This document shows, piece after piece, positions 5,297 to 59,351 of a stretch of 64,000 bases of DNA. The DNA is from an uncultured Planctomycetia bacterium (GTDB taxonomy: Bacteria > Planctomycetota > Planctomycetia > Pirellulales > Thermoguttaceae). The notes under the pieces are model-generated. The model was given only the letters and a program-made list of their open reading frames with translations. It did no database searches and had not been told where the DNA came from. The DNA lies in NCBI GenBank assembly GCA_963815695.1, contig CAWFIG010000022.1, forward strand, positions 96,648 to 160,647, written 5' to 3'. A program made the translations under genes and the position numbers. Within the stretch, counting starts at the first letter, position 1. Each line of letters opens with the position of its first letter.

Positions 5297-5367
5297 CAAA
5301 CGGCACTCTCGCCGAATCAGAATGCCGGGCAGGGCAGGGGAGGGTAGGGGGGCTTGGCAGGCGGCCG

Positions 5368-14054: not shown

Positions 14055-14089
14055 TCCCCTCTCCCGCTGGGAGAGGGTTAGGGTGAGGG
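14055..14089. repeat. short GC-rich hairpin element (CCCTCTCCC-GCT-GGGAGAGGG followed by TTAGGGTGAGGG)
   Basis: 9-bp stem at 14057-14065 / 14069-14077. A variant of the same element occurs at 40957-40982. Confidence 0.75.
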
Positions 14090-14424
14090 CTGAGCCAACG
14101 AAGCACGGTGGCCTTCTGGTATCCGGCATCTTCCCGGCAAGACCGATTGGCCCCCCCCTGCCCTGCCCCATTGATCGGCGTTAGCATCCTCGGAGTTGCC
14201 GGACCAGGGAGTGGCGAATCAATAACGGTCGCTCGTCGCTTCACTTCTCTGCGTCCTCCGCGCTTTCGCGTGAGTCCCGTTCAGTGACTTGGTTCACGCG
14301 AAGGCACGGAGGACACGGAGCGGGGAGACGATGACGATAGTTGATTTATCGGTCCCAAGCGGTCGTATGTCGAAATTCATAGGCGATCGAGATCGAGCGG
14401 CGTCGTCTTGCCCACCCTCTTCGC

Positions 14425-14692: not shown

Positions 14693-15950
14693 TCAGATTC
14701 CGAGCCTCTTGAACATGTCGTCGGCATTATTACAGTGCGTCAGGTTCTCGCCACGATCCGTTGCGCCGAATGTCCTTTGCGTCGTGGCGTTCGGATCGGC
14801 CAGCACTCTTTGATACAATTCTCGTAGTCTAGCGGTCATGTGTTCGTGGCGAAACACGTCGGTGAAGCGGCGGCGGCCTTCCTGGCCGAGGCGATCGCGC
14901 ATGGCGGGATCGGCGGCGAGCAATTTTAGCTTCTCGGCCAGCGCGTCGACGTCGCGGGGCGGAATCAGGAAACCGGTCTCGTCGGAAATGACCACCTCGC
15001 GGGCGCCGTCGACGTCGTAGCTGACCGCCGGCTTGCCGGAAATCAACGCCTGGGGCAGAACCCGGGCGAGCCCTTCGCGCAGACTGGCGTGAACCACGAT
15101 GTCCATCGCGGCGATCAGTTCGGGGATTCGCTCGGGCGGGACCAGGCCGGTGAACTGGAAATAGTCGGTCAGCCCGGCCGCGGCGATCTGCTGCCGCAAG
15201 CCGGTCGCGAAAGATGCCGTCGCCGACGAAGAGGAAACGGACGTTCGGCGCCGCGTCGATCACGCCGCGGGCCGCGCGAATCACGTCGTCGTGGCCCTTG
15301 AGCTTGAACAGCCGGGCGATCTTGCCGATCACGACGTGCTCGGGCCGATAGCCCAACTCGCGGCGCACGCGGTCGCGATGCTCGCCCGACTGGAGGAACG
15401 GCTCGACCTCCATGCCGCTGTAGATCGTGGTGAACTTTTCGCGCGGGGCCACGCCGGCCGAGACCATCAGATCGGTCATGGCGTCGGCCACGCTGACGAT
15501 GGCGTGGCATCGCTTCGCGGCCCAGCGTTCGCAGGCTTGAAAGAACAGCCGCGCCCCCCTGCCCTGGTACGGATGGAACGGCGCGCCGTGGACCGTGTGG
15601 ATCACGGCCGGCACGCCCAGCGACCAGGCGGCGGCGCGGCCGAGCATTCCGCCCTTGGCGCTGTGCGTATGAACCACGTCGGGCCGAAATCGCCGCAGCG
15701 ACCTTTTGAGTTGCCGATAGCTGACGGCGTCGCGCCACGGATGGATCGGCCGGCGCAGCGCGGGGATGATTTCCAGCGGCACCCCCCCTGCCCTGGCCCG
15801 ATCCAACAGACTCCCTTCCGGCCCCAGCGGCGGCCCGGTGATCAGCAGCACGTCGTCGCCGTGCTGGCGGAGCAGGTCTTCGCAGCAGAGCACGGTGTTT
15901 TCCTGTGCTCCGCCGAGGATCAGTCGCGTGATGACGTGGGCGATACGCAT
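14693..15950 (-). CDS. GT4-family glycosyltransferase, one apparent frameshift near 15200
   Basis: ORF 14829..15950 (MRIAHVITRLILGGAQENTV...HTHSAKGG...) joined to ORF 14693..15199 (FTGLVPPERIPELIAAMDIVVHASLREGLARVLPQALISGKPAVSYDVDGAREVV, the E-x7-E region). Confidence 0.85.
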
Positions 15951-15990
15951 GGACTGGCATCAACTCTGCCGAGCCGAGGACTGTTCGGGA

Positions 15991-16632: not shown

Positions 16633-16935
16633 GGATTTCTCCCAAAAGAACTGGTCCAGTTTCGGGCAACTCACGTTTCCCTCCTCCGTCAAACTTAGGT
16701 TACGCTAGAAGGGAGGCGGGTTTGGATGCGACGAAAATGTCGCTATACCCCTCATCGTGGTGGCAACGAGACGGGGACCGCCACCGTGCCCCCTCTGACG
16801 GAGCGGTAGGCCTCTTGTCTGCCCGGAGCAGGCGGCAAAGGCGCGCCCCGACGCTGCCGACCGCACGGCGAGAAGCCCGATGCATCTGACAGCTCTGATT
16901 TGTCGCCATCTGCCGCTGAGTCGGCTATCTTCCGG

Positions 16936-17802
16936 TCACCGACTGGGGCTCTGTATTGGACGCTCGATCAGACAGAGCCCTTGCGGCGGGGCGGTCGGAC
17001 CGCCGAGCCGGCGATCCGCGGCACGGAGGACTTCGCCGGGCCAACTTTCCGGCCGGCTGCCGCGGCCGACTTCCACCAGCGTGCCGACGATCGCCCGGAC
17101 CATGTTGTAGAGGAACCCGTCGGCCTCGATCTCGATGGTGATGAAGTCGTTGGCGATCGGGATCGCATGTTCCCCGCGACCGCAGTCGCGGGGCGTTAAC
17201 GTCGTTCTCCATCCCTGACCCCTGACCCTCCCCCTGACCCCTGTTCCGCCCCCTCCCCTGCCCTGCCCCGCTCGACGCGAGAGTTCGAAAACCGTTCGCA
17301 CGCTGGTCTTTCGTTCGGCGCCGCTGCTCTCGAAGCTGCTGAAGTCGTGCGTGCCCAACAGCGCCGCGGCGGCGCGGCGCATGGCGTCGGCGTCGAGCCG
17401 GCCGTAAACGTAATGCCAGACGAAATGCCGGCGGAAGACGTCGCGGACCGGCCCGTCATGGATCAGGTAGCGATAGCGCTTGCGAACGGCGTCGGCGATC
17501 GGATGGAATCCATCGGGCGCTTCGGCCACGTCGAGCACGGCGACGTCGTGCGGCAGATTGGCGTTGATGGCCCGCAGCAGCACCTCGGGCGGCAGCGCCG
17601 AATCGGTGCGAAATCCGACCACCTGGCCCAGGGCATGAACGCCGGCGTCGGTCCGGCCGCTGGCCAGAATGCGGACGTGCTGGCCGGTCACTTTGGCGAT
17701 GGCGTTTTCCAGCGTTCCTGCACGGTCGGCCTGCTCCGGCTGGAACTGCCAGCCGGCGTAGGCCGTGCCGTCGTAGGCGATGGTGAGCTTGAGGGTTCGC
17801 AA
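16936..17802 (-). CDS. truA: tRNA pseudouridine(38-40) synthase with a repeat-derived Gly/Arg-rich insertion
   Basis: Intact 288-aa ORF, TTG start. Contains KLTIAYDGTAYAGWQ, SGRTDAGVHALGQV and EADGFLYNMVRAIVGTL. Extra segment AGQGRGGGGTGVRGRVRGQGWRTT is encoded by 17213-17268. Confidence 0.9.
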   Translation of the reverse strand: MRTLKLTIAYDGTAYAGWQFQPEQADRAGTLENAIAKVTGQHVRILASGRTDAGVHALGQVVGFRTDSALPPEVLLRAINANLPHDVAVLDVAEAPDGFHPIADAVRKRYRYLIHDGPVRDVFRRHFVWHYVYGRLDADAMRRAAAALLGTHDFSSFESSGAERKTSVRTVFELSRRAGQGRGGGGTGVRGRVRGQGWRTTLTPRDCGRGEHAIPIANDFITIEIEADGFLYNMVRAIVGTLVEVGRGSRPESWPGEVLRAADRRLGGPTAPPQGLCLIERPIQSPSR

Positions 17803-17814
17803 GGAAGTCGGAAT

Positions 17815-18137
17815 CGCCGTCGATCATTGGTCGGGCTTTGCTGCAGGACGACGTATTGTTTTTCGATAATGCGTCGAAAATGGTCCTGGTCGTCGCCCAA
17901 TCGATCACGTCCACCTTGAACGGCAAATCGGATTCGCGGAACGCTTCCTGCAGATCGGCAAGCACGGCCGCGCGGCAAGCGGCTCATCGCCGAGGATCGC
18001 CAGATCGAGGTCGGAGAACTCCTTTGCCGTTCCGCGACGCGCGAGCCGAACGCCCAGACCTCACGGTCCGGCACATGCTCGGCCAGAATGCGGAGCACAT
18101 CGTGCAACTCGCCCGGACTCGCATCAATCGGCTGCAC
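17815..18137 (-). CDS. nucleotidyltransferase-domain protein (MNT/HI0073-like), multiple apparent frameshifts; 3' end approximate
   Basis: GTG at 18137: [34 protein letters not shown]. Continues in other frames as KEFSDLDLAILGDEPL, LADLQEAFRESDLPFKVDVIDWATT and FRRIIEKQYVVLQQ. Confidence 0.6.
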
Positions 18138-18550
18138 GGTTGCGCCGCTCCAATTCCGCCAGCAGAAGGCGAACGTCGTCCCGAAAATCGTTCAAAACGG
18201 CCTCGATCTGTTCGGCCTTGGCTCTGGTCGTAGGTGTGGCTCGTGATGTTGCGTTTTTCGCGATAATCGCGAAATCGGGCGACGTCGGCGATCAAGCCGG
18301 CCTCGGCTCCCGAACGCACGACATCCATGTAGGCCATTTTGTCGATGGCGGCCGGATCGGCCGCCATCTGCTCCAATTGCCGCTTGAGCATCTTGAACGC
18401 CAACTCGTGGGTAAACTCGAACGCCTGAACCGCCGCCGCCCGAAACTGCTCGCGCAGATCGGCGTTTTCGGCCAGTTCCGAGTTCAGAAACCCGAGGCTC
18501 TTTTCCAACGCGGCCAGGGCACTGCGAAGCGATGTCAGGTCGAGACGCAT
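18124..18550 (-). CDS. HI0074-family nucleotidyltransferase substrate-binding (HEPN-like) protein, one apparent frameshift
   Basis: ORF 17984..18550: [29 protein letters not shown]...[18 protein letters not shown]...[18 protein letters not shown]. The tail is restored manually as [31 protein letters not shown]-stop (18124). It overlaps the NTase start by 14 nt. Confidence 0.7.
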
Positions 18551-19553
18551 TTATTCCTCCTTTCACCAGCAATTCCGCAATCTGCACCGCGTTGGTGGCC
18601 GCGCCCTTGCGGAGGTTGTCGCTGACGCACCAGAACGCCAAGCCGTTCGGGCTGGAAAGGTCCTCGCGAATCCGGCCGATGAACGTCTCGTCGCGCCGGT
18701 CGCAGTTGATCGGCATCGGATAGACCTTCTTCGTCAAGGTCGTCCATCACCACCAGTCCCGGCGTGGCGGCGAACAGCTTGCGGGCCTCCTCGACCGTGA
18801 TCTTCCGCTCGGTCTCGACCAGGATGCTCTCGCTGTGGCAGTTGCTCACCGGCACGCGGATGCACGTCGGGCAGATCTGGATCGAGTCGTCTTCCAGCAT
18901 CTTCCGCGTCTCGTAGACCATCTTCATCTCTTCCGAGGTGTAGCCCTTGTGCTTGGGCGAGCCGATCTGCGGAATGCAGTTGAAGGCGATCGGATGGGCG
19001 AAGCACTCGTACTTGTAGTCTTCGCCGGCCAACTGCGGCCTTGGTGCCGCCGATCAGATCGCGGGTGCCGGCCAGGCCCGCGCCGCTGACGGCCTGATAG
19101 GTGCTGACCACCACGCGGCGGACCCGGCCGGCGTCGTGCAGCGGCTTGAGCGACTGGACCATCTGCGTCGTCGAGCAGTTGGGGCTGGCGATGATGCCCT
19201 TGTGCTGGCGGACCGCGTGCGGATTGACCTCCGGGATCACCAGCGGCACGTTCGGGTCCATCCGCCAGTAGCCGCTCTCGTCGATCACCACGCAGCCGCG
19301 GCGAACGGCGTCGGGGATGAAGTCGCGGGCCACGTCGTCGGGCGTGCTGCTGATGACCAGATCGACGCCGTCGAAGACCGGGCCGTCGAGTTCCTCGACC
19401 GTGATCTCTCTGGCCGGCAAACGGGATCTTCTTGCCCGCCGACCGGCCCGAGGCCACGAACTTCATCGTGCGAAACGGAAACTTGCGGGCTTCCAGCAAC
19501 TCGCGAATGATGGTTCCCACGGCGCCGGTGGCGCCGACGACCGCGACACGAAT
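18551..19553 (-). CDS. asd: aspartate-semialdehyde dehydrogenase, multiple apparent frameshifts; start approximate
   Basis: Stitched from 18924..19676 ([20 protein letters not shown]), 18734..19420 ([21 protein letters not shown]...[13 protein letters not shown]), 18535..19032 ([14 protein letters not shown]...[14 protein letters not shown]) and 18192..18737 ([20 protein letters not shown]). TAA at 18551-18553 directly abuts the ATG of the HEPN gene. Confidence 0.85.
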
Positions 19554-19702
19554 CGAACACGGACAATCTCCTATCAGCAGGGCGAAATCGTCATTCAACG
19601 CGACCGAACCCGCATTATCGCACGATCGATCCCAAATCTCAACCGCAAATCGCGCGCGGCAAGGCCGACGGATCATCGAGGCTAGATTCGAAGCAACAGA
19701 AA

Positions 19703-34673: not shown

Positions 34674-34707
34674 CGGTTAATCCCTAATCCCTAATCCCTA
34701 ATCCCTC

Positions 34708-38965: not shown

Positions 38966-39236
38966 GCTCCACCGGCCCCGTGCCGGTGGACAGACGATTG
39001 GCCACTACCGAGGGCTTGCACAACTCCACGTCGCTCCACCGGCCCTGTGCCGGTGGGCGAAACGATTGGCCGCTTCCACGCCCGGCCCGCACAATCATTC
39101 GCTCCACCGGCGCGGGGCCGGTGGGGGCGATGACGCGAGACCTTTGCGGCTGTAGTGGCCAATCATTCGCTCCGCCGACGCGGTGTCGGCGGGGGCGGAG
39201 CGTTGCAACGAAAACCGTATCATTGGCCCGCTCCCC
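38966..39236. repeat. tandem array of four 67-68-bp units, each with an 8-bp-stem hairpin
   Basis: Units start at 38966, 39033, 39101 and 39169. Each begins GCTCCACCGGC-N5-GCCGGTGG. Unit 4 has CCGCCGAC-gcggt-GTCGGCGG, i.e. two compensatory base-pair changes. Confidence 0.85.
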
Positions 39237-40621: not shown

Positions 40622-41851
40622 CTATGGTACGAGTCGGGCGTCGAGCCAGTCGGCGTGGTCGAGGACGTCGGCGCGGTCGGCGTAATCGACTAGTAGTTCT
40701 AGCTTCTTCGCGCCGCGAACATCGACGGAAACCGGCAGCGGGGCGTCGCCGCCGCGGACGATTGGACTGGTGAAACGTTCCTGGCCATCGACCAGGACGC
40801 GGAAGATCACGCTGCCGCGGCCTGGCGGTCGAGTCGTCGATGCCGACCTTGGCCTCGAAACGATGGAAACGACTTGGAAATTTCGGAGACTTGGGGATCC
40901 GCAGCCTCTGACCCCTGACCCCTGACCCCTGACCCCTCAGCTGCCCTTACCCCCTGCCCCTCTCCCACCGGCGGAAGAGGGGAGATTGTGTAGACCAGCC
41001 GGGCGGCGCTGTGAACGCCGAGGCCTTTCAGATAAAGCTGGCCGCTCGCAGCGGAGCATGCCGCCGGTGACGTTGCGGTCGCGGCGATACGGCCACGGCA
41101 GGCGAGGAACGGCGTTTGGCGATACTCGGCCGGCTTGAGGTCGGAGAGATAGACGGCGCGGCCGCCAGCGGTTGAAGGAAGACGAGCGGCGAGCGCTTGG
41201 CCCGTAAGCGTTTGGCCGGCGGCCGTGATTTTCAGCGAATCGCCTTCGAGCAACAATTCCGTGGCCAACAGCCGGCTGCCGTCGCTGAAGCCTGCCCAGA
41301 CTCGCAGCGAGTCGGGCTTGACGGCCAGTTTTCGCCGCAAGGCGGGGTTGAAGAGGATGGCCGTGATGCGGTCGGTCTTGACTTCGGACCGGCGCCGGCG
41401 TCGGTCTTCAACGTGACGGCGTCGTCGGCGATGCCCTCGAAGAGGCCGGCAAGCTCGTCGCCGTTGTCCAACAGCAGGCGGTCGGAGTCTCCGGCGGCGT
41501 TGGAGAGGCGATCGAGCAATAAGTCGTGCTGCTGGCGGTCGGACAGGCGCGAAGGACGATGCCGGCCAGCACGTCGAGCGGCAGCTTCAGCGTTCCGAAC
41601 AGATCGGAATCGGCGGTGAGCCGGTCCTTGTCGGCGGCGACCACCTCGGCCGTCAAGCAGGCTGCCGTCGGCCAAGACGAGCCCCCCTGCCCTGCCCTGC
41701 TCCGGGCATTGTCCCCAGCGGACCAGATCGGCCGCCGGCATGGTGCGTCGCTCGTTGCCGACGGCGAAGGTGAGTTGCCAGTTGGGCGTCGACGGCGACC
41801 AGCTTCGCCGCGGAACGGCTCGCCGTCGACGGGAACGGCCACGGGGCGCAT
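40622..41851 (-). CDS. NPCBM/NEW2-domain protein, frameshifted and carrying a repeat insertion
   Basis: C-terminal ORF 40622..40810 (IFRVLVDGQERFTSPIVRGGDAPLPVSVDVRGAKKLELLVDYADRADVLDHADWLDARLV). Upstream fragments 40807..41340 (YLKGLGVHSAARLVYT), 41232..41906 and 41408..42025. Start MRPVAVPVDGEPF at 41851. Confidence 0.6.
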
Positions 41852-41871: not shown

Positions 41872-41962
41872 AATGCAAAATGCAAATTGAAAAATGCAAA
41901 ATGCAAATCTGAAATTCGAAATTGGAGATTTCAAATTCGAAATTGAAGATTTGAGATTGAAG
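41872..41962. repeat. AT-rich heptamer tandem array, 13 units in perfect register
   Basis: aatgcaa aatgcaa attgaaa aatgcaa aatgcaa atctgaa attcgaa attggag atttcaa attcgaa attgaag atttgag attgaag (91 nt = 13 x 7). Confidence 0.95.
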
Positions 41963-41993: not shown

Positions 41994-42035
41994 GCCCTCT
42001 CCCCTCTCCCCTCTCCCCTCTCCACTACCCTACCG
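41994..42035. repeat. C-rich heptamer array (GCCCTCT, CCCCTCT x3, CCACTAC, CCTACCG)
   Basis: Counted directly. Overlaps the stop codon (42030-42032) of the prenyltransferase-repeat gene. Confidence 0.9.
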
Positions 42036-49723: not shown

Positions 49724-49828
49724 GGTTAGTGGGCAGTCGGCAGTCGGCAGTGGGCAGTGGGCAGTCGGCGGTCGGCAGTCGGCAGTCGGCAGTCGGCAGT
49801 GGGTAGTGGATAGTGGGTAGTGGGTAGT
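49724..49828. repeat. heptamer tandem array, 15 units in perfect register (consensus SGGYAGT)
   Basis: ggttagt gggcagt cggcagt cggcagt gggcagt gggcagt cggcggt cggcagt x4 gggtagt ggatagt gggtagt gggtagt (105 nt). Starts 2 nt upstream of the VWA gene ATG (49720-49722). Confidence 0.95.
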
Positions 49829-49865
49829 GCGAAACCGCAAGCGGTTGTGAAGATATGACGAAGTT

Positions 49866-49935
49866 CATCTCTCATCCCTCATCCCTAATCTCTCATCCCT
49901 CATCCCTAATCTCTCATCCCTCATCCTCTCCCCCC
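49866..49935. repeat. C-rich heptamer array, ~10 units with a 21-nt super-period (CATCCCT CATCCCT AATCTCT)
   Basis: Counted directly. Overlaps the 3' end and stop region of the BatA-like gene. Confidence 0.95.
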
Positions 49936-52085
49936 AGTTTCCATCCCAGGAAGACCTCCGCCAGCGCAGGCCGAGCGCCGCGTAGAGGAGATCGACGTGC
50001 AGCCCTTGCTGGCCGTGGGCCGTCCCGACGCCGGCGCCTTTGATGTCTTGCCAGGAAGTCTGATAGACGAACGGAATGTCCGGCCACGTCTGGTTGCGCA
50101 GGTCGTCCGCATCGATTTGTGCAAGGTCGCTCTCCGTCGTATCGACGTTGACCGCGAACGTCTGGCGGCGGTTGGCCGGCGGGCCGAACTGCACCGTGTA
50201 GATGCCGCTTTGCAGCGTGTCGGCGTACGTCAGGGCGAAGCGGTCGCCGGCGGGCTGCAACTGCGCGGGCCGCTTGCGGCCGTCGGGCGATTGCACGCTC
50301 GCCGACGATATGCCGCCCGACGACGTCAAGGCGTCGAACGTATCGCCCACCAGGACGTTTCGCTGTTGGAGTTGCCCGGCCGCACACCAGGCGACGATCT
50401 CCTGCACCAGCGGGACGAAGCTCGGCCAGAGCGGCATGGCGGTCCACGACGGCTCGGCCGAGGTGCCCACCAGCACGACCCGGCCGCGATGGACCGATTG
50501 CTCGATCACCAGCGGATCGCCGTTGCCCAGCGCCAGCACGGTCGTCGCGTGCGACTTCTTCGACGGCGTCAGTTGGTAATGCTTGAAGACCGGCGTGGTC
50601 AGCAGGCTGGTTTGTCCGCGGCCGCGAAACGCCTCGAGAATCGGATGCCGATAGCCGAGCGGATCGAGCCGGAACTGCGGCTGATCGACGACGTTGCCGA
50701 TGCGGGCGGGCAGAATGTGCGGCCCCCCTGCCCTGCCCTCCCCGGCGACGCCCAATTCGCGATTGTAGCGGTCGGCCAACACCTGATCGCCGAGGAAGAA
50801 GACCACGCTGCCGCCGCCCTGCAAATAGGCATCCAGGGCGCGGGCCTCGCTGGCGGTGAACTGGGCGACGTTGCAAAGGAACAGGCAGTCGTAGCGTTGC
50901 CAGGTTGCGCTCCAACAGCGCGCTTCTCCGTGGCCACCTCGGCTTGCAGCGGCGACTGGTCCGACCTTTCGCCTTGCGGCGTCGAGCGCCACGGCGAGAT
51001 AATCGGCGGCGCCGCGGAACGAACCGCCCGAGGGCCGCCCGTCGATGCACAATGCGCGGATCGCTTGCCGCAGCGGTCAGGGCCAGATAGCGGTGATTGT
51101 CGATCTCCAGGGCGTCGCCGGGGGCGCGGGCCTCGATGGCGTGATCGCCGGGCGACATCGAAACGATACGAGAACTCCGACCGCGCCGCTGCCGTCCGGT
51201 GACAATTCCGCTTGGGTCTGCGCGATCCTTCGCCCATCGACGAACAGTTCCACAAGTTGGCGATTGCGCGGCGGCGGCGACCGAAATGCTGCAGACGAAC
51301 GTGCAGGGGCGTGTCGCGGCCGACGGTGACCAGCGAATCGGTCGTGCGGAGATCGGTAATCGCCAGATTCTCCGCCGACGGCTGGCCCAGGTCGATCACG
51401 AACAGGTCGGCCAGTTGGGTCAGTTGGCTGGTCTGTTCGAGGAACTGGGCGCGGGCCGTCTGCGAGAATTGCGGCGCCCATGTGACTGCGCTGCAAGTCG
51501 GTGAGGAAATAGACCTCATGGCGGTCGAGCCGGGGGTTCTCGCCGGCGACCTTCTCGATCAGTTGCCGAATCGCGGGAATCGCCGCCGGCAGATCGGCCA
51601 CGGTATGCGGAAGCTGCAAGTTGTCGATCTCCTCGCAAAATGGCAGCGGACTCCAACGCCGCCGTGCCGACGACCACTCGCGGCGTCGACGACATCAGCA
51701 CCAGCGTGAAGGCGTCGCCCTGCGGGCTGTCGCTGACGATCTGCCGGGCAAGCTCCTTGGCGTGGTCGAATCGCGTCTTGTCGGCCGGCTTGTAGGCCAT
51801 CGAGTAGGAGCCGTCGAAAACCAGCACGCGGTGGACGTGGCTGCCGGGCGTGAAGGCCATGCCCGCCCGCTCGATGTACGGCTCGGCCACCGCCAGCACC
51901 ACTAGCACGACCAGCAGCGTGCGAACGGCCAGCAGCAGCCATTGCTCGAACAGCAGCCGCCGCGTCTGCCGCCGCACGGCCGCCAGCAGATACTCCATCG
52001 CCGCGAACGACATTTCCCGGTACTTCCGCCGGCTCCACAGATGGATCAGGATCGGCGCAGCCGCCGCCCCCAGCCAGCCGAGCAT
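49914..52085 (-). CDS. BatA-type protein (N-terminal double-TM domain), multiple apparent frameshifts
   Basis: ORF 51516..52085: MLGWLGAAAAPILIHLWSRRKYREMSFAAMEYLL...LLLAVRTLLVVLVVLAVAEP...VLVFDGSYSM. Further fragments 51077..51619, 50599..51519 and 49865..51052. Restored end AEVFLGWKLGGEDEG-stop (49914). Confidence 0.7.
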
Positions 52086-52134: not shown

Positions 52135-52175
52135 GGTGGATAGTGGGTAGTGGGTAGTGGGTGTGGTTAGTGGGT
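52135..52175. repeat. heptamer array (AGTGGGT)x4-5
   Basis: ggtggat agtgggt agtgggt agtgggt gtggtt agtgggt. Lies ~50 nt upstream of the BatA-like start. Confidence 0.9.
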
Positions 52176-59222: not shown

Positions 59223-59351
59223 CACCCAGTAGGTCCCGCCTGCCGGGCGGGACTTGTGTGCGTACCGTCTCGAGAAGTCCCGCCTGCCGGGCGGGACTTG
59301 CGTGCATACCGTTTCGAGAAGTCCCGCCCGGCAGGCGGGACCTACTGGGTG
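59223..59351. repeat. REP-like palindrome cluster (three GTCCCGCC-N5-GGCGGGAC hairpins inside a larger palindrome)
   Basis: Hairpins at 59233-59253, 59277-59297 and 59321-59341 (the third is the exact inverted form). Two ~44-bp direct repeats. Outer arms cacccagtag / ctactgggtg. Confidence 0.9.

Follow-up and report, generated by a model that had tools for sequence, protein, structure and literature searches.

How did a conserved tRNA-modifying enzyme come to carry a loop that reads like translated repeat DNA, and is that loop real? The question is raised by the truA gene in a 64,000-nucleotide stretch of an uncultured Planctomycetia bacterium of the Thermoguttaceae (contig CAWFIG010000022.1, positions 96,648 to 160,647; hereafter, the window is this whole stretch). 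A sequence-only reading of the DNA had described an in-frame insertion of about 30–35 residues in truA, made of heptamer repeats and a 14-mer with G-quadruplex (G4) potential, and had interpreted it as the invasion of an essential gene by a non-coding repeat. Here, we argue that the extra segment is probably a real, inherited, and translated expansion, driven by repeats and tolerated in a permissive β-hairpin turn in the C-terminal half of TruA. The gene and the turn are as follows.

16936–17802, minus strand: truA open reading frame (ORF), tRNA pseudouridine38-40 synthase, 288 amino acids as assembled, identified by Pfam PF01416, PDB matches, and Foldseek.
17149–17277, minus strand: expanded β-hairpin turn, residues 176–218, 129 nt, delimited by anchored loop lengths in 161 loci and by AlphaFold2 (AF2).

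The TruA turn in the window and its relatives

The identity of the gene product is clear. It matched PF01416 (PseudoU_synth_1) in two stretches (E = 1e-38; 132.5 bits against a cutoff of 23.3) and the PDB sequences 1dj0 / 2nqp (E ~5e-48), and the top Foldseek matches were TruA structures. The catalytic motif GRTDAGVHA (GRTDxGVHA) is kept as SGRTDAGVHALGQ, and the catalytic residue D52 was invariant among 72 homologues. Four near-invariant columns of the family (T26, Q28, V281, and Y283) are not intact in the window, being replaced by frameshifted stretches (17720–17732 and after 16967) that are treated below. The ORF translation contains ...SVRTVFELSRRAGQGRGGGGTGVRGRVRGQGWRTTLTPRDCGRGEHAIPIANDFITIEIEADGFLYNMVR..., in exact agreement with the peptide quoted in the earlier reading, which is the literal translation of the assembled ORF. 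The word "essential" was too strong, as E. coli and Salmonella can do without truA (hisT).

Turn lengths were measured between tblastn anchors on both flanks in 161 planctomycete loci, independently of gene calling. The turn of the window (129 nt) exceeds the 27-nt baseline of the Pirellulales by 102 nt, which corresponds to 34 residues and agrees with the size first estimated; the repeats were located within it. An HMMER alignment with E. coli TruA (1dj0) matches query residues 174 and 219 to residues 175 and 182, so that ~38 residues are extra. The fold, the catalytic motif, and the hairpin itself are shared with the canonical bacterial enzymes (E. coli 1dj0/2nqp and T. thermophilus 1vs3), whereas the turn between the paired residues comprises ~6 residues in E. 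coli and 44 in the window. The AF2 model, built with 72 homologues, placed strands at residues 168–177 and 220–227 and a coil between them with a predicted local distance difference test (pLDDT) score of 32–47. Thus, alignment and structure mapping both put the insertion at a β-hairpin turn (1dj0 residues 175–182; the AF2 coil).

The insertion is not private to the window. The closest assembled relative (L001, an ENA long-read contig with intact neighboring genes) shows 88% nucleotide identity over truA, asd, and the glycosyltransferase gene with conserved gene order, and its loop is also 129 nt long and aligns to that of the window at 90%. A JGI contig (L082) likewise has a 129-nt loop with ~90% nucleotide identity. 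Four further relatives (L162–L165), one of them a Logan short-read contig, have homologous loops of other lengths (93–207 nt). Among the matches listed in a metagenome scan for close relatives, a few reached ≥60% identity, and individual contigs were used for the comparison. The noise of the window assembly, described below, might suggest that the entire insertion is a collapsed or chimeric repeat created by the assembler, but assemblies that are independent of it, made from other samples and on other platforms, have homologous inserts at this codon, and this explanation has practically no chance of being correct.

Neither did the insertion arise recently. The repeat families of the loop also occur in non-genic arrays of the window, as would be expected if a non-coding repeat had lately entered truA in this genome with the frame kept by chance. 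However, the same insert (~90% identical) is present in two assemblies whose flanking genes are only ~88% identical (12% divergent), homologous mosaics occur throughout the clade, and an octamer of the insert is already found in uninserted loops. A recent, private invasion is therefore very hard to believe; the check proposed in the earlier reading, whether close relatives lack the insertion, found it in L001 and L082.

Across the 161 loci, the turn ranges from 15 to 243 nt. The 15-nt form (53 loci) is of the Gemmataceae and Isosphaeraceae types, and the 27-nt form (45 loci) is the usual state of the Pirellulales. In the 117 closest protein homologues (62–81% identity), the segment from SVRTV to ADGFLY spans 21–109 residues (median, 52), and 14 of them have no insert. 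The modules that fill it differ: peptides of the GRAG/RAGQG type, encoded by the octamer-containing module, occur in 88 homologues, the heptamer peptide GLGIRDxGL in 28, the hairpin peptide NAPRLRSRG in 19, PSP..GRGAGGEG in 17, VGCVQRT..AFHAPY in 16, and LPHAERE in eight. Members of other planctomycete families have unrelated, non-repeat insertions of 20–30 residues at the same codon. Because the lengths vary, the modules form mosaics, and unrelated insertions occur in other families, the site is generally permissive, and in the clade of the window it is a hypervariable hot spot.

Repeat modules and the reading frame

The expanded turn of the window is composed of three modules, two of which together form a longer G-rich tract. 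The term KOPS denotes the FtsK-orienting polar sequences of E. coli.

17250–17269, minus strand: KOPS-like module GGGGCAGGGCAGGGGAGGGG, two overlapping GGGCAGGG octamers and one degenerate unit, which contains the 14-mer of the earlier reading.
17213–17247, minus strand: G-rich heptamer array (Tandem Repeats Finder), in which the GGGGTCA-type units measure 7, 6, 6, and 7 nt in the assembly.
17213–17269, minus strand: tract predicted to be G-quadruplex-prone, 57 nt with nine G-runs on the sense strand, the longest in the window by pattern scan.
17172–17193, minus strand: perfect 9-bp GC hairpin CCCCGCGAC-NNNN-GTCGCGGGG with a 4-nt loop, found by inverted-repeat search.

Tandem Repeats Finder reported 4.7 copies of CCCTGAC at 17213–17243 (period 7; 76% matches) and a 19-nt period at 17213–17269; the heptamer array also has a 19-nt direct repeat. 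The 15-mer CCCCTGCCCTGCCCC at 17255–17269 has 13 matches in the window (≤2 mismatches) against 0.43 expected, and the 14-mer consists of two overlapping copies of GGGCAGGG. Among the relatives, the GGGCA copy number varies from two to four, and the heptamer site holds GGGATTA/GGGATCA units. The heptamers belong to families that form non-genic arrays in the window: (TAATCCC)4 lies at 34678, directly 3′ of the stop codon of a pgi-like gene, and (CTGACCC)4.3 lies at 40906 beside a GGGGCAGGG motif and a hairpin of the PSP/GEG type, the site being 78% alignable to the truA tract.

The third module behaves differently. The hairpin (arms at 17172–17180 and 17185–17193) has the same sequence in the window, L001, and L082. 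L165 has it twice in tandem, and in L164 it is degenerate, having decayed without compensatory changes. No second copy of the module was found in the 64-kb window or in 165 loci (1.1 Mb). Based on this distribution, the hairpin piece is clade-specific and not a dispersed repeat, and an assignment to the dispersed elements of the repetitive extragenic palindromic type was rejected for a structure that is single-copy and intragenic. The earlier idea of a non-coding type of repeat in truA thus stands in part. The G-rich pentamer and heptamer DNA shares families with the non-genic arrays of the window, but the hairpin third has no other copy, and the 14-mer is no invader: turns of 27 nt that lack an insert already hold one GGGCAGGG, and they do so in three different frames.

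No terminal inverted repeats of the insert were found, and an Rfam scan of the whole window gave no family at threshold. A discrete mobile element, such as a miniature inverted-repeat transposable element (MITE) or a Rickettsia palindromic element (RPE), was also rejected, because no terminal inverted repeats were found and no second full copy exists in the window or the 1.1 Mb of loci; the one look-alike, at 40.9 kb in the window, resembles the G-rich part only. The palindromic module VGCVQRT..AFHAPY of relatives is absent from the window. The loop of L165 (L165:1551-1759) contains four GGGCA units, a 34-nt hairpin unit duplicated in tandem, and then another GGGCAGGGCAGGGC. In L165, L094, L084, and L083, the GGGCAGGG motif is present at both ends of the insert; such motif-bounded inserts may be duplications or independent copies, and they hint at duplication or recombination mediated by the motif.

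Several other repeats were observed in the window. Tandem heptamer arrays with G/C-rich and AT-rich units, in up to 14.6 copies, are situated at gene ends and between genes, and they resemble the short tandemly repeated repetitive sequences of cyanobacteria and the GGGNATC repeats of Xanthomonas. Hairpin elements of the form CCCCTCTCCC-N-GGGAGAGGG followed by TTAGGGTGAGGG occur at 14060–14095 and 40950–40990, and DNA of the CCCCTCTCCC-N-GGGAGAGGG type is translated as LPSP..GRGAGGEG in the TruA loops of L083 and L027. Longer tandem repeats were also noted.

34678–34706; 40906–40940; 41872–41958; 41995–42023; 49728–49829; 49865–49926; 52136–52175: heptamer arrays.
38966–39125: 68-nt tandem repeat, 2.4 copies.
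59233–59341: 44-nt tandem repeat, 2.5 copies, with the palindrome GTCCCGCCTGCCGGGCGGGAC in the unit.

The reading frame is retained throughout: the two flanks of the turn are in the same frame in all 161 loci, and the frame preservation first noted for the window holds at the gene level. A GGGATTA array is read in all three phases, which makes the codon pair GAT-TAG unavoidable. The peptide GLGIRD-x-GL, which this array encodes, occurs 30 times in 29 of 120 homologues, and in 26 of the 30 instances the residue x is encoded one step away from TAG (W, 16; Q, 7; L, S, and E, one each); the unit reads GAT CAG in L001 and GAT CGG in L082. The expected stop codon has always been mutated away. The array (TAATCCC)4 at 34678, which is intergenic, has perfect units. 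Because the residues at x are such neighbors of TAG, the insert appears to be translated and to be under selection for its frame.

Units of 5 and 7 nt within a coding region raise the question of whether truA is a contingency locus, switched on and off by slippage of non-triplet simple sequence repeats (SSRs), with the odd frames of the window reflecting heterogeneity in the population. Unit numbers do differ between relatives, and the +1 frame meets TAA at 17196–17198. However, there are only two to four imperfect units, which is too few for high slippage, the changes found only in the window are single bases and not whole units, and none of the 161 loci is out of frame. We consider such switching highly improbable.

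The peptide itself might be what is selected. Every frame of the G-rich strand gives a Gly/Arg-rich peptide, and TruA is an RNA-binding enzyme, so that a disordered loop could serve as an RGG-like arm that helps to hold the tRNA. Such a gain of function is improbable: the sequence is not conserved, the extra length varies from zero to ~88 residues among close homologues, acidic or Pro-rich modules occur as well (LPHAEREEY, PSP...), and, as noted above, 14 of the 117 homologues lack the insert. The Gly/Arg-rich loop shows no sequence conservation, and disorder is predicted for it. The most likely interpretation is therefore a tolerated passenger, a fast-evolving decoration of the surface that is probably neutral to enzyme function. 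Selection, if there is any, would act on the DNA motif.

The exact peptide of the window has to be read with care. Comparison with five relatives by pairwise and six-way DNA alignments revealed seven single-nucleotide indels in truA that are found only in the window, and the ORF, which had been regarded as fully intact, is open only nominally. The indels and two alternative-frame ORFs are listed here.

17154–17278, minus strand: window-only indels of the loop (+1 at 17278, –1 at 17230, –1 at 17226, and +1 at 17154).
17720–17732, minus strand: window-only +1 at 17732 and –1 at 17720, 12 nt apart, changing ..RPTVQ.. to ..QADRA...
16936–16967, minus strand: C-terminal tail whose frame is shifted by a window-only +1 at 16967, reading GLCLIERPIQSPSR in place of the consensus GLCLVxVEY.
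17196–17459, minus strand: alternative-frame ORF ending in RVERGRAGEGAEQGSGGGSGVRDGERR*, the form in which the relatives read the 5′ half of the loop.
16925–17212, minus strand: alternative-frame ORF starting with MENDVNAPRLRSRGTCDPD, the form in which the relatives read the hairpin half.

The four loop indels sum to zero, which keeps the ORF open; across the inner 120 nt, the frames used are not those of any relative, whereas the remaining two frames of the window (VERGRAGEG... and ENDVNAPRLRSRGTCDPD) correspond to the relatives' reading of the loop DNA. The pair at 17732/17720 destroys the T..Q motif (T26 and Q28, ≥90% conserved in 72 homologues), and the insertion at 16967 replaces the V..Y pair, also ≥90% conserved. 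Neighboring genes are affected in the same way. The asd gene (18192–19676, minus strand) has uncompensated single-base insertions at 19550, 19410, 19036, and 18734 compared with three intact relatives, and the glycosyltransferase gene (14693–15959, minus strand) has one at 15199, also against three intact relatives; the counts of window-only indels are four, one, and seven for asd, the glycosyltransferase gene, and truA. No such indels were found outside the loop in L001, L163, L164, and L082. In L162, which belongs to the same ENA series and has Flye-like contig names, the asd, GH172, and FtsW genes are fragmented.

Because the same type of indel breaks the neighboring genes, the most likely source of the indels is consensus error in a noisy long-read assembly (~0.4% indels in asd, the glycosyltransferase gene, and truA). 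The breaks in asd and the glycosyltransferase gene would have the same cause and are less likely to mark pseudogenes, and the noise probably explains the scarcity of intact-looking ORFs in the window. The quoted peptide, faithful to the assembled letters, is then probably not the true one but partly an artifact; if the four loop indels are errors, the true peptide would resemble VERGRAGEGAEQGSG..NDVNAPRLRSRGTCDPD. Real, compensated frameshifts are a possible but doubtful explanation of the inner frame changes. The truA indels up to 17154 sum to zero, and the close spacing of 17732 and 17720 is what rapid compensation would produce, but the insertions in asd and the glycosyltransferase gene are uncompensated, a further +1 alters the conserved C terminus, the shifted stretches replace conserved residues, and the sister contig series shows like fragmentation.

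Between asd and truA (17456–18550, minus strand), an ORF with an NTase_sub_bind domain (HEPN-like; E = 3e-24) and frameshifted pieces resembling a nucleotidyltransferase were observed, where L001 and L163 have a GH172 gene. This region is a likely toxin–antitoxin insertion or replacement.

A polar octamer at the turn

The octamer GGGCAGGG deserves separate consideration. In 1.1 Mb of loci oriented by truA, it has 283 copies on the truA strand against 26 on the other (skew, 0.92; one per 3.9 kb) and is the most skewed of all octamers; it also ranks first in the window (20 versus 4). It keeps this orientation within genes that are encoded on the opposite strand, and likewise where two such genes flank it, and for this reason the polarity appears to be chromosomal and not transcriptional. 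The truA loops are 21-fold denser in the octamer than the loci overall, and the expanded loops contain it in all three reading frames (L086, L094, L103, and L084). Uninserted 27-nt turns do so as well (CGG GGC AGG GGG; GGG CAG GGG; AGG GCA GGG). Because it is found in all three frames, and in uninserted turns too, the octamer is best viewed as a DNA-level feature of the turn that is older than the expansion.

The KOPS of E. coli, with the consensus GGGNAGGG/GGGCAGGG, have a skew of 0.91 and a density of one per 12.6 kb (PMC3384302). As with these sequences, also treated as architecture imparting sequences (AIMS), the planctomycete motif is the identical octamer, strongly skewed, over-represented, and polar irrespective of gene orientation. 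It differs from them in its higher density and in the recurrence of the 14-mer double copy, often between genes.

It is possible, although we judge it unlikely, that the turn persists because it offers a landing pad to a motif of this kind, polar along the chromosome and orienting FtsK, to a G-quadruplex, or to both, so that selection on the DNA drives the protein loop. The identity with the E. coli octamer, the top-ranked and transcription-independent skew, the enrichment in the loops, and the use of all three frames would fit such a function, as would the AGG codons that encode Arg there. AGG is rare in high-GC genomes. However, a permissive loop would gather any motif over-represented in the genome without a local function, and the GC skew of the window (1–64000), weakly positive on the plus strand, points the opposite way to the octamer, which lies mostly on the minus strand.

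As to the 14-mer GGGCAGGGCAGGGG, it is hugely over-represented across the window, with exact copies at 5327 on the plus strand and at 14155, 17255, 37813, 39314, 41684, 44497, and 50725 on the minus strand. In other genomes, many copies lie between genes, just after terminator-like hairpins or 10–100 nt upstream of start codons. A promoter or 5′-untranslated-region element had been considered for the several copies located 10–100 nt 5′ of starts, but the constant orientation of the octamer in opposite-strand genes led us to reject a link with transcription as the principal explanation. The copy at 50725–50738 is inside an ORF whose coding frame is well supported (49865–51076, minus strand; GC content at third codon positions, 0.83) and is read as GEGRAGG; a homologue check of this ORF found no PDB relative and only a weak Pfam match.

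Origin and meaning of the expanded turn

Here, we propose how the expansion may have arisen. The Pirellulales turn already holds one GGGCAGGG, which would have acted as the seed. In the clade of the window, this seed may have grown into a mosaic of three modules, namely two to four overlapping GGGCA units, three to five heptamers (GGGRTYA), and the unique hairpin piece of ~45 nt, with other members of the clade acquiring different genomic repeat modules at the same spot. Growth would have proceeded by slippage, local duplication, or template switching among the G-rich repeats in steps that are not multiples of three, and a combination would survive only if it brings the frame back ahead of the conserved DFITIEIEADGFLY strand. 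One pentamer plus one heptamer makes 12 nt and would provide one easy in-frame route. Purifying selection would act on the frame and on stop codons only.

Five points weigh against this account or its details. The growth mechanism is deduced from differences in unit number. In its C-terminal domain, the AF2 model is of low quality (mean pLDDT, 62.7); it was used for topology only. Because the hairpin module is not dispersed, genomic repeats account for only some two thirds of the insert. The weak GC skew is at odds with the simple expectation that a G-rich polar motif marks the leading strand. Finally, the cancellation of the truA indels up to 17154, attributed above to consensus errors, is an outcome that selection would also produce.

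By analogy, the loop may be regarded as a translated, repeat-derived expansion that works like intragenic RPE or MITE insertions and like uptake words in coding regions. Intragenic RPEs and insertions of MITEs and of enterobacterial repetitive intergenic consensus (ERIC) elements have been reviewed (PMC10969869); as in the truA loop, genomic repeat DNA lies in frame in housekeeping genes and is translated and tolerated where the fold permits. RPEs are discrete elements of ~100–150 bp with a conserved peptide and many full-length copies, whereas the truA insert has no second full-length copy and combines short tandem units with a unique hairpin, and a variety of modules recurs at one site of this one protein.

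G4-forming heptamer SSRs are known as GGGNATC in Xanthomonas and GGGGAYT in Nostoc (Rehm et al. 2015, PMC4692102), and they are reported to be under-represented inside ORFs, especially on the coding strand (PMC4692102). The arrays described here share with this class the tandem G3–4 heptamers, the number of units (~4), the dispersal over the genome, and the frequent location <50 bp from ORF ends (34678 and 40906 in the window). The truA array departs from the class: it lies within a gene, on the sense strand and 530 nt from the start of the ORF, its units are imperfect, and stops have been edited out.

The DNA uptake sequences of Pasteurellaceae (USS) and Neisseria (DUS) are embedded in coding regions. 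They provide a parallel for a DNA word selected genome-wide that is translated in several frames, mostly in poorly constrained parts of proteins; GGGCAGGG differs from them in being polar.

The preferred reading, a tolerated expansion driven by repeats, describes a natural and recurrent insertion hot spot in a conserved tRNA-modifying enzyme, in which at least five kinds of genomic repeat DNA are translated in hundreds of uncultured planctomycetes, and it maps a highly permissive site in the TruA fold. The locus would also show cleanly how selection on a DNA word, the KOPS-like octamer, can spill over into coding sequence, here in all three frames. It carries a warning as well: G-rich, stop-free repeats in metagenome-assembled genomes from noisy long reads can mask several frameshift errors within a seemingly intact ORF. 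More speculatively, and with a rather low probability in our estimation, the TruA turn of the Pirellulales may be a long-lived docking site for the KOPS-like word in any frame, which in one clade nucleated a translated, modular, runaway expansion of pentamers, G4 heptamers, and palindromes. If this is true, selection on DNA motifs of chromosome architecture would write and rewrite a protein loop.

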